In this document: piece after piece, positions 18,603-60,394 of the stretch | Position numbering within the stretch: position 1 is the first letter of the stretch | How the letters are laid out: the number at the start of each line of letters is the position of its first letter | IMG/VR virus record: IMGVR_UViG_3300011868_000001 | Location: 1 to 64,000 of that record | Direction: 5' to 3' (one strand) | Source: a virus | Lineage: Duplodnaviria; Caudoviricetes | DNA: 64,000 nt | Program-made: the position numbers and the translations under genes | The notes under the pieces: model-generated | Told to the model about the DNA's origin: nothing | The model's input: the letters and a program-made list of their open reading frames with translations, nothing else | Database searches by the model: none

Positions 18603-18881
18603 TCAATCGGGCTGTACTGCGTTGTTGCGGGCGTTGATCAGTCGGATGTTGTTGTTGCAACGCATCACCGACTTGACCTGATGAATGTAGGCATCACCAA
18701 TGATGACGAGCTTCTCATCTGGGGTTGCATCCAAGTACTGCTCAGGCTGCGGAGGTTTGGCTACGTTGCACTCCGGCACCTCATGATACGGTTGGGCCTG
18801 GCAGCCACTCAAGGCGGCCAGCAGTACCACGGCCATGATCAGAAAGCCCACAGGGATTGGCCACTTGGGCCGACCTGTCAT
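18603..18881 (-). CDS. o-spanin-like lipoprotein
   Basis: Hydrophobic signal with lipobox LSGC, Pro-rich mature part, ATGA overlap with upstream TM/coiled-coil gene. Confidence 0.65.
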   Translation of the reverse strand: MTGRPKWPIPVGFLIMAVVLLAALSGCQAQPYHEVPECNVAKPPQPEQYLDATPDEKLVIIGDAYIHQVKSVMRCNNNIRLINARNNAVQPD

Positions 18882-19390
18882 CGGAAGGGTGCACATACAT
18901 TGTCCTCATTGTTGGTGGCTGTGCAGTATGCTCGCCAGGTGTTGTTCAGTACTTGATTGGCTATTTCTTCATTGACCGGACGTAGCTGACTGACCGCTGG
19001 ATCGAACAACTCAGCCTTTTCTGGATCGGTGGTCGGACACTGCGTCTGACGATCACGGTATTTGATCACCTCAACAATTTGAGGACCTACCGGTGCTGGC
19101 GCTTTGGCATCATACCGCGCAGCACACAGAAGATTGACCTGCGATTGTTCGATCTCATCGAAGTTCAACTTGATTTTCTTCTTGGTGTTGGTGTGATCAT
19201 CGATTGAGTCGGTAAGCTTTTTGATCACCCCTTCCAATCGTTTGATTTCGGTATTTTGTTGGGCGACAGTGGTGTGCATGTTAAAGGACCAGTTGACCCA
19301 GAAGGCGAACCCTCCGACAACTGCTCCGATCAGAAGTATTTTCAAGACCAGCCCCTTAAGGCCCGTCAATTTAAGCAATTTGGTAAACAT
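18878..19390 (-). CDS. i-spanin-like protein
   Basis: N-terminal TM helix then coiled coil; paired with lipoprotein gene. Confidence 0.6.
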   Translation of the reverse strand: MFTKLLKLTGLKGLVLKILLIGAVVGGFAFWVNWSFNMHTTVAQQNTEIKRLEGVIKKLTDSIDDHTNTKKKIKLNFDEIEQSQVNLLCAARYDAKAPAPVGPQIVEVIKYRDRQTQCPTTDPEKAELFDPAVSQLRPVNEEIANQVLNNTWRAYCTATNNEDNVCAPFR

Positions 19391-23098: not shown

Positions 23099-23755
23099 TT
23101 AAACGGACTCGGTAGGCTCGACCGTCATCGACATGTCAGGTGGCGGCACCAGGTAGAACGACCAGGTGACTGCTTCCAAGGCGGCACGGTCTTCCAGTTC
23201 ATAGGCCATGAGCAGGCGCTTTTCAGCAGCATGACGCTCGGCCGTGAACAGCGCCATGGCGGGCGAGAACTGGCTGTCGTTGTGGATCACCCGGTTGGCC
23301 AGATCAAGCAAATCGCTTTCCAGGCCTTTGATCTGACGGCTCTGTGCCAGATCATAAAGAAACGGTGCTTCACTGCGAGGGAAATCTGCGATGACCCGCG
23401 CTGGGTCAGCAGCCATCCAGTTGATGACTACACGCGCCTCGGCGATCTGAACTGGCCAGGTGATGGTTTCTGCCAATGGATAACCTGACTTGATGAAATT
23501 TACAGCCGACTCGTATTCTTCACTCAACTGATGGATACGGGTCTGGAGCAGGATATTGAGAGGCAGAACCACAGGCTCTGCAATCGGCGCATCGACCAAT
23601 ACAGGATATCCATCATCACCTGGCTGTAGAACCTTGGTACCAGTCTCTAACTGCGCCATGATAGCATTGTAATCAGCATCGGGCACAGGCACAACATCTA
23701 GCCAGATAGAGCCATCATTGATGAAGGCGTTTCTACTAGGGGAATAATACATCAT
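23099..23755 (-). CDS. tail fibre assembly-like protein
   Basis: YYSPS..F...Y..I......G..L.P.DDGYPVLVD.P N-terminus and YP..E..TW..Q..EAR typical of Tfa-like proteins. Confidence 0.65.
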   Translation of the reverse strand: MMYYSPSRNAFINDGSIWLDVVPVPDADYNAIMAQLETGTKVLQPGDDGYPVLVDAPIAEPVVLPLNILLQTRIHQLSEEYESAVNFIKSGYPLAETITWPVQIAEARVVINWMAADPARVIADFPRSEAPFLYDLAQSRQIKGLESDLLDLANRVIHNDSQFSPAMALFTAERHAAEKRLLMAYELEDRAALEAVTWSFYLVPPPDMSMTVEPTESV

Positions 23756-23773: not shown

Positions 23774-24052
23774 TTAGGGGAGATAGGTCAGCCAGATATC
23801 ACCATCGGCACCGTCGGCCGAAGTGGGCGAGGCAGTGGAGATGAATACATTGCGTTTACCCATGGATTTGAGCCCTAGGTCAATGTCTCCAGTCCCATCG
23901 AAATCCACCCCTTGAATCTTGCGAGCAGTACTCAGACGCTGGGCTGCAGTAGCGGTACCGGTCACATCCAATTTACCCCCTAGGCGAGTCAGCATAGCGG
24001 TGGTCATACGTTGGATAGACAGTACGGCGGCTGCAAATGAGGAGTTGCTCAT
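23774..24052 (-). CDS. miniature tail fibre-like protein (92 aa)
   Basis: KLD...TA..A.RL.TARKIQGVDFDGTGDI and STASPT..DG.DGDIW fibre motifs. Confidence 0.65.
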   Translation of the reverse strand: MSNSSFAAAVLSIQRMTTAMLTRLGGKLDVTGTATAAQRLSTARKIQGVDFDGTGDIDLGLKSMGKRNVFISTASPTSADGADGDIWLTYLP

Positions 24053-24102
24053 AAGTCACCTATGAAATTGGTAATACGGTAAGTCTCATAGGATGACAGC
24101 AC

Positions 24103-24964
24103 AAAAAAACAGCGAGGCAAAAAAATAAAGGAAGTCTTGGGAAGGGCAGATATATACGTCAGCTTGCGAGAGCGCTCAGGCTCTAACGGACCGCCGTCCG
24201 TCCTGCGTAAATTGATCCCCTTCCCGTAACCTTTGCTACCAGCGCCTACGAATTGGTAGGACTTGGACAGAACATGTCTGTCAATTGCCGAACTTAATCG
24301 GTTGAGATATGGTGGTAGCTGTGCTACTCGACCTAGGAATGCTTACGGGGCCCACAACCACCGTGCAATTCGACAGATCGAGCCGTCTTCAATACCTGCC
24401 CACTTACTACTTCACTTGGAGCTTCACCGCGATCAATTCCAACGTACAGTTCAATCTCATGGTAGTATGGTAATACTGCCTTAAACAGCGCGATGGCCGG
24501 GGTCTCGAGATAGAATGAGTTGTTTGGTGCACTAAAGTGTTGCTCGCTGGAAAACCACCCGGCTGCTACCTGGCCAGTGTGTCCAATCAAGTGTCCTAGT
24601 AAGAAGACCAATATCAAGACTGGTCCGCGTGTGACGATACCGTCCTCCTTGAAGGGGGTGTTTAGTGGGGCAATTGGACAGTGCCCAGATCCTGTCAGTT
24701 AAGGTTCAAAGTCACGTCAAGGTCGTCACCAGACCACGGCCCTTTACCGTGCGGCGCGACTTCGGCGCAGATAGCGTGAGGCGAAGCGTATCGAGGCACA
24801 CGCTCAATCCGACACTGGAGTGTCAGGTGGTAGGGTGGTTTAAACCCTACCTTGACCTGACAACTTACCCAATGTGCCTGACTGAGTGCGGTCCCACGGA
24901 TGGCCTCGCAAAGCCAGTCAAAGTACATGCATGTCCTTAGACGATGTCACAGTGCTACTACATA
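24103..24964 (-). ncRNA. putative large structured non-coding RNA (about 850 nt)
   Basis: No credible ORF; more than 12 hairpins and nested helices; TATG at 5' end and A-runs (U-runs on minus) at 3' end. Confidence 0.45.
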
Positions 24965-24990
24965 GATATAGTCGCGCTCGTAAAAACTAA

Positions 24991-25278
24991 CTACCCCATA
25001 GCAATGCCGCCGCTACCTCCGCTTGGCACAACAGTGTCTTGATTGAAGTAGATTCGACGGATCTCCCCGGTTTCGATGTCGATCAAGATACGTGAACTGG
25101 ACTGCACACCACTGTCGGGTTCGCCTTCATACTCCACCGTCATCTCGATGGTTCGGCCCATCGAGAAGCTTAGACGTTTTTCAGTGTCGACGCGGTTGAC
25201 GGTTACGACCATTTCAGTCATGTACCCAGCTAAGAGTTTCAATAGCGGGTGGTGACGTTCGACATCTTTAATCTTCAT
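24991..25278 (-). CDS. hypothetical protein
   Basis: ATG with GAGGA SD. Confidence 0.6.
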   Translation of the reverse strand: MKIKDVERHHPLLKLLAGYMTEMVVTVNRVDTEKRLSFSMGRTIEMTVEYEGEPDSGVQSSSRILIDIETGEIRRIYFNQDTVVPSGGSGGIAMG

Positions 25279-58872: not shown

Positions 58873-59169
58873 TCACACCGCCACAGGGGCTTTGATGTGT
58901 GGATGAGCCACGTAATCCACCAGTTCAAAGTCATCGATGGAAAACCCAAAGATGTCCGTGACCGCCTTGTTGAGTTTCATCTTGGGCAGTTCGTGGGGAG
59001 TACGCGACAGTTGTAGATCGGCCTGCTCTACGTGGTTACTGTACAGGTGCGTGTCGCCGCCGGTCCAGATGAATTCACCTAGCGCCATGTTGCAGACCTG
59101 CGCCACCATCATGGTCAGTAACGCATACGACGCGATATTGAACGGCACCCCGAGGAAAATGTCCGCACT
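58873..59169 (-). CDS. thyA: thymidylate synthase exon 2
   Basis: [18 protein letters not shown]...GDTHLYSNH...IKAPVAV. Confidence 0.93.
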
Positions 59170-59473
59170 CGATCTGCGGAGGTTCAATCAAGTTCGTTAG
59201 ACCTGACCCGTCAAGGTTTCTCATGTCTTGACCGCTGTATGTCTCCATACAGACCAGACTATATCATGACCTCCTTCCTTAGAGGTCCCTCCCATTTCGA
59301 GGTCACTTGACCCCTACTCTACTCGGTTCGCCTGACTCATCAATGAGGCGCCTTTCGTTAGTCGTTGAACGTTCCCCTGTACGGGGCTTCGCTGCTGATT
59401 GTCTCAATGAGATGTCCCAGCAATTAGAGAGGTTATTCGACCAAGGTCACCCTTGGAAGGCGCAGTGGTGTTT
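59170..59473 (-). mobile_element. group I self-splicing intron (304 nt, no ORF) in thyA
   Basis: Exon 1 ends in U, intron ends in G; P AAUUGCUGGGA, Q AAUCAGCAG, R GUUCAACGACUA, S AUGAUAUAGUC; removal restores YQR-SADIFLG in frame. Confidence 0.93.
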
Positions 59474-60394
59474 ACGCTGGTACAGCTGGCACGACAAACG
59501 ACGCTTAGGAACACCCAGCTCATCGAGCTTAGCGTCGATCAGCTTACCCAGCTCTTCACCTCGGATATCATTATCCAGATCACACAGCCACGCCGAGTAT
59601 TCCGTGTAGCAGCCATCCCAACCCGGCTGAATGATCCGCTCACGTTCTTGCCGGGTCAGCGGCACGGTGTAGAATTGGAACATCGAATGGCACGGTGGGA
59701 GGGCTTGTTCCTCGACGACCGCAGGGTTCCAGGCGCTGACGATCATTCGGCGGCTGTCGGGATTGGTCTTCAGCATCTTGATCAGGTTACTGATCTGGTC
59801 GACCGACTCACCGTCGGGCGATGGCCAGCTGCGCCATTGCGAACCATAGACTGGACCGAGTTCACCGGCGATGAGCGTTTTGGTAGAAACACCACGTTCT
59901 TCAGCCCACGCAAATGCCATGGCGTCATAATCAGGATGTGCCCAGTAAATAGTACCTGGGATGTCCGGACCATTCTTGACATGCATGGTTTTGCCTTGGA
60001 TCTTTTCATAGCCTTCCTTATACTCGGAAAGCCAATACGGCTTGACCCACTCGATGAATTCTTCTTGCAGTCCTGCCGCTTTGATACGGGCATTAACCTC
60101 AAGAAGCGTAGCTGGTCGATATTCTTCAGTACCCGGCTTGACCCACTCATCCCAGATCGAGACACCGTGCTCTTTCAGGTAGCGGATGTTGGTCTCACCC
60201 TGAAGGAACCACAGCAGTTCGTGGATGATCGACTTCAGATGGCATTTCTTGGTCGTGACCAGCGGGAATTTACCGTCGCCAAGATCAAATCTCATCTGAT
60301 AACCGAAGACACTGTAAGTGCCAGTGCCAGTACGGTCTTCCTTGTAAACGCCATGTTGACGTACGTGCCTTAGCAGGTCGAGATATTGTTTCAT
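59474..60394 (-). CDS. thyA: thymidylate synthase exon 1
   Basis: [47 protein letters not shown]. Confidence 0.95.

Follow-up and report, generated by a model that had tools for sequence, protein, structure and literature searches.

A conserved, structured RNA unit of phiKZ-like jumbo phages that appears to encode two small proteins

The DNA analysed here (the window) comprises the opening 64 kb of a virus record 253,747 nt long, and its proteins match those of phiKZ-like Pseudomonas jumbo phages, the closest being pPa_SNUABM_DT01. On its minus strand lies an intergenic unit, present in a single copy in the genome and equipped with its own promoter motif and predicted terminator. The unit and its neighbours comprise the following features.

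24991-25278: upstream neighbour, a 95-codon gene
24961..24964 (-): phiKZ-type late promoter motif TATG
24119..24961 (-): predicted stand-alone transcript of about 845-850 nt (750-960 nt in homologs)
24943..24961 (-): near-invariant first 19 nt
24934..24939 (-): Shine-Dalgarno (SD) sequence of ORF1, UAAGGA
24695..24928 (-): ORF1, 77 aa, ATG start
24780..24920 (-): long irregular rod of the ORF1 coding region
24728..24754 (-): hairpin 1, with a 5-bp stem, a 7-nt loop that usually contains AAGG, and a lower 3-bp stem
24644..24650 (-): SD sequence of ORF2, AAGGAGG, 5 nt before ATC
24333..24638 (-): ORF2, 101 codons, near-cognate ATC start, signal-peptide-like
24385..24620 (-): ORF2 rod, with an inner covarying hairpin at 24461-24480
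24326..24383 (-): hairpin 2 domain, which holds the ORF2 stop and whose 3′ strand has an alternative downstream partner
24235..24319 (-): four-way junction with the CCGA-UURAGU-UCGG hairpin (loop 24292-24297)
24133..24231 (-): terminal branched hairpin, with a GGU-UAC-GG / CC-AAG-ACU internal loop and a three-way junction
24103..24129 (-): U-tracts of the predicted terminator, with the predicted end of the transcript at about 24119
23774-24052 (-) and 23099-23755: downstream neighbours, a tail-fibre fragment and an assembly chaperone

An earlier note on this DNA had read the region as a large structured noncoding RNA. The helices to which it gave coordinates all lie where it placed them, the one at 24821-24862 with an additional 3-nt bulge, and the minus-strand CTATG (24961-24965) and U-runs (24103-24129) are likewise present. 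The TATG occupies the same position in all 16 aligned homologs and in a seventeenth, L187. In phiKZ the late consensus is TATG with the G as start site, and downstream DNA contributes to the promoter (PMC4666361); the G at 24961 is thus the predicted +1 of the transcript. The first 19 nt are near-invariant in clades A and B (defined below) and differ in L023 and L187; promoter-downstream element and 5′-3′ pairing strand are candidate roles for them. They also hold a CACnGTG palindrome in which the only variable base is the centre, a possible operator. Beyond the U-tract lie tail-fibre or unknown genes, each with its own TATG, which for the next gene downstream in the window falls at about 24087-24090. 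The plus strand has one sigma70-like match, at chance level. Since the promoter motif, U-tract, SD sequences and frames are conserved in all homologs, comparison of these sequences settles the strand of the unit as minus. An Rfam scan, both at gathering score and at E<=10, gave no match in the region, in keeping with the note, which had recognised no known family in it, and ARAGORN found nothing in the region and no tRNA genes in the 64-kb window.

Several features of the surroundings may be recorded here. The 92-aa tail-fibre fragment at 23774-24052 (-), between the RNA and the tail-fibre chaperone gene, is variable among relatives, being absent or replaced by longer fibre genes (L050, L053). 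Some 5 kb downstream of the RNA, at 18603-19390 (-), adjacent ORFs for a 170-aa N-anchored and a 97-aa lipoprotein-like protein resemble, as judged by eye, an i-spanin/o-spanin pair, and in several relatives an Arc-domain (PF03869) gene lies 1.5-2 kb downstream of the RNA (L009 5827-6198, L026 5133-5504). Elsewhere in the window, a group I intron (59235-59483 (-), Rfam RF00028, 84.6 bits) sits between ORFs 58873-59187 and 59447-60394, the latter presumably, from its motifs, part of a thymidylate synthase gene.

A 28-nt match leads from the unit to the syntenic intergenic region of the cultured Pseudomonas phage pPa_SNUABM_DT01 (DT01), and motif and neighbour searches yielded 16 distinct full-length sequences, the window included. 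These fall into clade A (the window, L003, L008, L020, L026 and L031) and clade B (DT01, L009, L010, L011, L012, L014, L016, L034 and L035), with L023 distant and outside both. Each of the 16 starts at a TATG and ends 750-900 nt later in a hairpin and U-tract. A covariance model built from nothing but the clade A 3′ domain recovers clade B and L023 at E-values, rough for such custom models, of 1e-6 to 6e-3 and in one case 1.8. A scan for the UURAGU hairpin added L187, a 960-nt homolog in a 259-kb complete genome that has all parts in order (E 1.6e-5). Beyond the window there are hence 16 further distinct homologs, one of them in a cultured phage, and the 17 confident sequences represent few clades.

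Five contigs of 84-223 kb (L110, L186, L196, L201 and L204) carry probable remote homologs in rearranged form, the signal-peptide ORF coming first; the assignment rests on the co-occurrence of parts, as individual E-values are only 0.04-0.2. In this version (L110 5760-6630, for example, and likewise in the other four) an ATA-start signal-peptide ORF is followed by a hydrophobic ORF that has no canonical start. The two could be joined in L110, L196 and L201 by an AAGG-AAU-CUU-U stretch, which looks to us like the prfB +1 frameshift site, and in L186 the second ORF lies in frame after a UGA. Further afield, neither covariance model found a homolog in phiKZ, Noxifer, PhiPA3 or Phabio in a filtered first look of limited sensitivity, an architecture scan of about 140 kb of DNA of these four phages was blank, and prokaryote genomes gave no motif match. 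The ~880-nt p40 transcript of phiKZ (PMC8545117) was considered and set aside: the candidate stretch, the placement of which is uncertain, has no similarity to the unit. A 16-nt hairpin match in Edwardsiella phage pEt-SU was not counted, the other parts being missing. That same hairpin occurs in an unannotated intergenic stretch of ~450 nt near tRNA genes in pEt-SU (L333 1777-2224) and Pantoea phage Survivor (L334), together with a 105-nt segment 83% identical between both phages; this stretch may be a separate conserved RNA. We found no description of an RNA like the one at our locus in the literature that was searched.

In some relatives the unit may have been lost or remodelled. A complete 254-kb relative, L004, has a 2.1-kb deletion at a 10-nt microhomology (L004 16131-16140; window 26375 to 24247) that removes most of an AAA ATPase gene, the 95-codon gene and the 5′ ~715 nt of the RNA, leaving only the terminal hairpin. 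Unless this deletion is a misassembly, the loss suggests that the unit is probably dispensable in some conditions. In the close relatives L050 and L053 a quite different 3′ domain follows the UURAGU hairpin (from RNA position ~675), a swap that suggests module recombination at this hairpin.

The earlier note had called the region free of ORFs with convincing starts. This does not hold, as ORF1 has AAGGA and an ATG, and ORF2 has AAGGAGG and an ATC that standard ORF finders miss; in some relatives gene finders call both ORFs. About 540 of the 845 nt lie in the two frames, only the last ~215 nt being noncoding (the 3′ domain measures 215-330 nt among homologs). Both frames are free of stops in 16 of 16 sequences, where some 35 stops would be expected from the parsimony substitutions and none is seen, and the other two frames of the same strand contain stops in 16 of 16. 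Indels in ORF2 come in multiples of three in seven of nine cases, against 6 of 39 outside the ORFs (p=0.0006). In the N-terminal segments of both ORFs, substitutions in clade B avoid second codon positions. At the comparative level, then, conserved ORFs cover the region that had been taken for noncoding, an outcome that the earlier note had named, for a translated ORF, as one that would overturn its reading, and small proteins are probably encoded.

Selection acts unevenly on these proteins. pN/pS is 0.64-0.75, below 1 in all four sets, as compared with about 0.33 for the neighbouring gene, and amino acids beyond the N-termini drift and are overridden by helix-preserving changes. Synonymous divergence is far below that of the neighbouring gene (0.23 vs 0.79 for one pair), synonymous sites being about three times more conserved, which shows constraint at the nucleotide level. 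Protein searches with ORF1 and ORF2 returned only family members, with no Pfam match and no distant relative, and an AlphaFold model was uninformative (pLDDT 47).

ORF1 starts with ATG in 12 of the 16 homologs and with TTG in 4, behind an AAGGA that is invariant in all 16. Its length is 64-86 codons (123 in one homolog), and its N-terminus is amphipathic or hydrophobic, the remainder being poorly conserved. In the window, ORF1 crosses hairpin 1 in a different frame from its relatives and rejoins the same stop, a frame found identically in six independent assemblies; L031 is also frame-shifted.

The start of ORF2 is its most unusual feature. It is AUC in 16 sequences and AUA in L187, AUG being found in none of the 17; GGAG or AGGA precedes the ATC by 6-10 nt in 16 of 16, and in L014 a stop codon stands directly before it. 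The predicted protein (83-117 codons across homologs) has a basic n-region and a hydrophobic h-region and, in clade B, an AxA-like site, and thus resembles a Sec signal peptide: in all 16 sequences a hydrophobic 11-mer scoring >=2.35 starts at residue 3-9 behind an n-region of net positive charge. Among the 158 GGAG+ATC sites of the genome, only that of ORF2 opens such a signal-like frame. The ORF2 proteins of the two clades are only 15-23% identical, and the distance from the start to hairpin 2 is held at 272-284 nt. An apparent C-terminal peptide motif shared between clades (VHG/LHG) proved to be an RNA hairpin read in non-homologous positions. In E. coli, AUC and AUA initiate at 1-2% of the level of AUG (bioRxiv 10.1101/063800), and in infC the AUU/AUC starts are the target of IF3 and the means by which the gene senses it (PMC5499595). 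The phage genome has no IF3 gene, so that any sensing of IF3 by the unit would be of the host factor.

As to the fold, the earlier expectation that the region would fold better than shuffled sequence holds locally, with 150-nt windows reaching z-scores of -2.8 to -5.7 over 24721-24960 and down to -4.3 in the 3′ part (background in the 64-kb window, -0.68 +/- 1.37), and only modestly for the region as a whole, with a z of -1.84 on the minus and -1.48 on the plus strand. Stable folding is seen in the 5′ third (z to -5.7) and in the last 280 nt (z -3.6) but not in the middle, local z being about 0 to +1.9 over the ORF2 body. The decisive support comes from the homologs, which the note had proposed to search for covariation. 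For three segments in each of the two clades, both the energy of the consensus fold and the number of tree-aware compensated pairs are better than in all 14 column shuffles of each: 12, 9 and 17 pairs in clade A against null maxima of 7, 3 and 6, and 8, 7 and 8 in clade B against 2, 4 and 6. In clade A the 3′ domain reaches 93% paired, and 15 of its pairs are changed on both sides; the hand-drawn structure of the clade B domain is weaker (85% paired, 9 pairs). In both main clades, then, covariation extends over the full length of the structure and through both ORFs. What stands of the earlier reading is a large, conserved, structured, phage-encoded RNA running on the minus strand from TATG to U-run; what finds no support is that it is noncoding.

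The layout is that of two tandem modules, each consisting of SD, start, long coding rod and stop-bearing terminal hairpin, followed by the noncoding 3′ domain. The ORF1 rod, which includes the helices at 24821-24862 and TGACTG/CAGTCA, is predicted in each homolog and shows covariation. Hairpin 1, close to where ORF1 ends, forms its pairs in 120 of 120 cells (15 sequences), four of its five stem pairs being changed on both sides. In the ORF2 rod, where the changes are compensatory and non-synonymous, the signal-peptide codons (24610-24620) pair with codons ~81-85 (24385-24396); the case for this rod rests on covariation, because neither its single-sequence stability in the window nor the duplex energies of the signal strand alone exceed shuffles. 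The two modules may be paralogous: in clade B, hairpin 1 and hairpin 2 share one design, a 5-bp stem topped by a GG-containing 7-nt loop, and in the remote group an element resembling hairpin 1 stands at the distance of hairpin 2. The strand after the ORF2 stop can, in both clades, pair back into ORF2 or forward at comparable predicted energies, from which one would predict that the 3′ domain is sensitive to the arrival of ribosomes at that stop. Of all the elements, the four-way junction bearing the CCGA-UURAGU-UCGG hairpin is conserved most widely.

No loop-loop or pseudoknot pairing covaries across clades, and short self-complementary loops that could kiss are present. Clade A contains unpaired stretches rich in pyrimidines, but these show no conservation between clades. 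There was no support for pairing between the 5′ end and the strand that precedes the UURAGU hairpin, and a 5′-3′ closure near GGUUAC is predicted in clade B in varying register. In the terminal hairpin of clade B (e.g. L009, L001), the apical loop YUGAUC, which is also self-complementary, is complementary over 6 bp to the ORF2 start region, GAUCAR. As the match occurs in nine of nine clade B sequences and in none of clade A, an anticodon-mimic or IRES-like model was not adopted.

Among known systems, the unit would seem to work most like an RNAIII-type dual-function RNA with an infC-like start. RNAIII of S. aureus is 514 nt long with 14 stem-loops, a 5′ membrane-active peptide, a conserved 3′ domain and delayed translation (PMC12612679). 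The phage RNA is likewise a large multi-hairpin transcript with a membrane-directed small protein in its 5′ part, a conserved noncoding 3′ domain and translation that is probably held back by the fold. It differs in being phage-encoded, in having two ORFs (64-117 codons) where RNAIII has a single one of 26 codons, in its near-cognate start and in the covarying rods over its coding regions, and the two are unrelated in sequence. With infC (PMC5499595) it shares a strong SD joined to a phylogenetically fixed near-cognate start, the predicted product being an exported peptide and not IF3. As in SecM, MifM and VemP (PMC7897499, PMC10987492), an export signal precedes a poorly conserved spacer of fixed length, and ribosome-sensitive RNA pairings, predicted in our case, lie at the end of the ORF. 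In contrast to those systems, a terminator takes the place of a downstream sec or yidC gene, and no C-terminal arrest motif is seen: none is conserved at the ORF C-termini, which differ between clades and follow the RNA hairpin.

The likeness to GOLLD and ROOL RNAs (bioRxiv 10.1101/2024.12.08.627333) proposed in the earlier note extends to size (~850 nt), phage origin, extensive covariation, a multi-domain build, a 3′ part more conserved than the 5′ part and apparent dispensability. It stops short of kinship: the unit has no Rfam match, no tRNA island and two conserved frames that look translated, and no pseudoknots or intermolecular contacts were detected in it. A tmRNA was rejected on negative ARAGORN and Rfam results and on the ORFs' own SD sequences and starts, and a group I/II intron or small ribozyme on the negative Rfam result in the region and the intergenic position with own promoter motif and terminator. 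The mRNAs of type I toxins such as hok and aapA encode small membrane proteins, synthesis of which is damped by folding of the whole mRNA. Our unit resembles them in its predicted small membrane proteins, in an output apparently damped by the fold and in a possible 5′-3′ pairing. Unlike them, it encodes not a single short hydrophobic toxin but two longer ORFs (64-117 codons), one with a signal of cleavable type, and is a late gene of a lytic phage. On these comparisons the unit does not qualify as GOLLD, ROOL, a tmRNA, an intron, an arrest peptide or a type I toxin-antitoxin system.

What such an RNA does can be approached from the weakness of its second start. A strong SD fixed to a weak start, together with signal codons locked in a rod, points to a deliberately low and conditional output, and for this reason we favour, at a probability somewhat below one half (roughly 45%), a structure-gated bicistronic late mRNA that gives a low, IF3-sensitive output of two envelope proteins. 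The RNA would harbour two small envelope genes, one of which always has a weak non-standard start, and its fold probably serves to limit the amount of their products or to set when they are made. The transcript would be made late by the phage RNA polymerase, and the rods and the AUC/AUA start would keep the output of both proteins low. Because IF3 rejects such starts, the output of ORF2 should rise when free IF3 falls during takeover of the host translation system. Ribosomes reaching the ORF2 stop would open hairpin 2, whose 3′ strand would then move to the downstream partner. The products would be one inner-membrane-associated and one exported periplasmic peptide, in a small or delayed dose. 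Lysis timing or superinfection exclusion is our best guess for their job, one that we expect to be wrong more often than right, and no protein family match supports either.

Against a structure-gated mRNA speak the ornate 3′ domain of 215-330 nt, which far exceeds the needs of a terminator, the weak amino-acid constraint past the N-termini and the loss of most of the unit in L004. In the main rival, less probable than the mRNA reading, the RNA is the effector: the ORFs would act in cis as membrane/Sec tethers or as sensors of translation or export, the mature peptides being by-products, and passage of the ribosome would switch the 3′ domain into a scaffold, decoy or sponge. Concentration of protein-level selection in the N-terminal targeting segments would then make sense, as would the ORF1 frameshifts, tolerated and even fixed in a population, the precedence of helices over amino acids, the constant spacing between start and hairpin 2, the wide conservation of the 3′ domain and the competing helices at the ORF2 stop. 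However, few molecules would be tethered if the start is used at about 1-2%, pN is lower than pS throughout the ORF bodies, and no conserved tertiary contact, pseudoknot or arrest motif was found. An independent base-pairing regulator of phage or host mRNAs in the 3′ domain, with peptides from the 5′ two-thirds, would reproduce the layout of RNAIII and give a use to the unpaired pyrimidine-rich stretches of clade A. We consider it unlikely: these stretches differ between clades, the best complements in the phage genome to four conserved single-stranded elements are 9-11 nt long, and the whole RNA gave nothing convincing there.

That the unit is a purely noncoding ornate RNA like GOLLD or ROOL, with accidental ORFs, would fit its size, its phage origin, its full-length covariation, the low synonymous divergence and the loops that could kiss, but every homolog has two pairs of SD and start, frames that stay open, indels that keep the frame and a hydrophobic N-terminus. 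Along with the lack of an Rfam match and of tRNA genes in the window, this renders the account the least credible of all. Hardly more credible, and already largely refuted, is the converse view, in which the unit is a pair of ordinary accessory genes that evolve fast and are followed by a long terminator region, the structure being incidental. Gene finders do call both ORFs in some relatives, the whole-region z is only -1.8 and one relative is without the unit; yet compensatory changes above all shuffles in every segment, the conservation of synonymous sites relative to the gene next door and a conserved non-AUG start are left without explanation.

On the comparative evidence we conclude that this RNA family of phiKZ-like jumbo phages is real, conserved and undescribed, and that it is coding and structured at once. 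The locus marks a blind spot, being noncoding to annotation, coding to codon tests and in fact both; screens for large RNAs that discard ORF-bearing regions and gene finders that ignore ATC and ATA would each miss half of it. With a cultured member in pPa_SNUABM_DT01, a phage of P. aeruginosa, the family is directly testable. Outside infC it is rare for a near-cognate start to be retained in so many diverged sequences (at least 17), and its retention here suggests that the phage may read the initiation-factor status of its host. Beyond the structure-gated mRNA that we favour, one may speculate, on rather long odds, that the family represents a class of phage RNA of its own, whose ornate fold is coupled by two embedded signal-sequence ORFs to the translation and export machinery of the host. 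Ribosomes would be admitted at the IF3-sensitive AUC/AUA start only once host initiation is depleted, the RNA would be drawn to the membrane by the nascent signal, and the 3′ domain would flip as ribosomes reach the stop. Nucleus-forming phages would in this way possess a timer made of RNA for lysis or another late event at the envelope.
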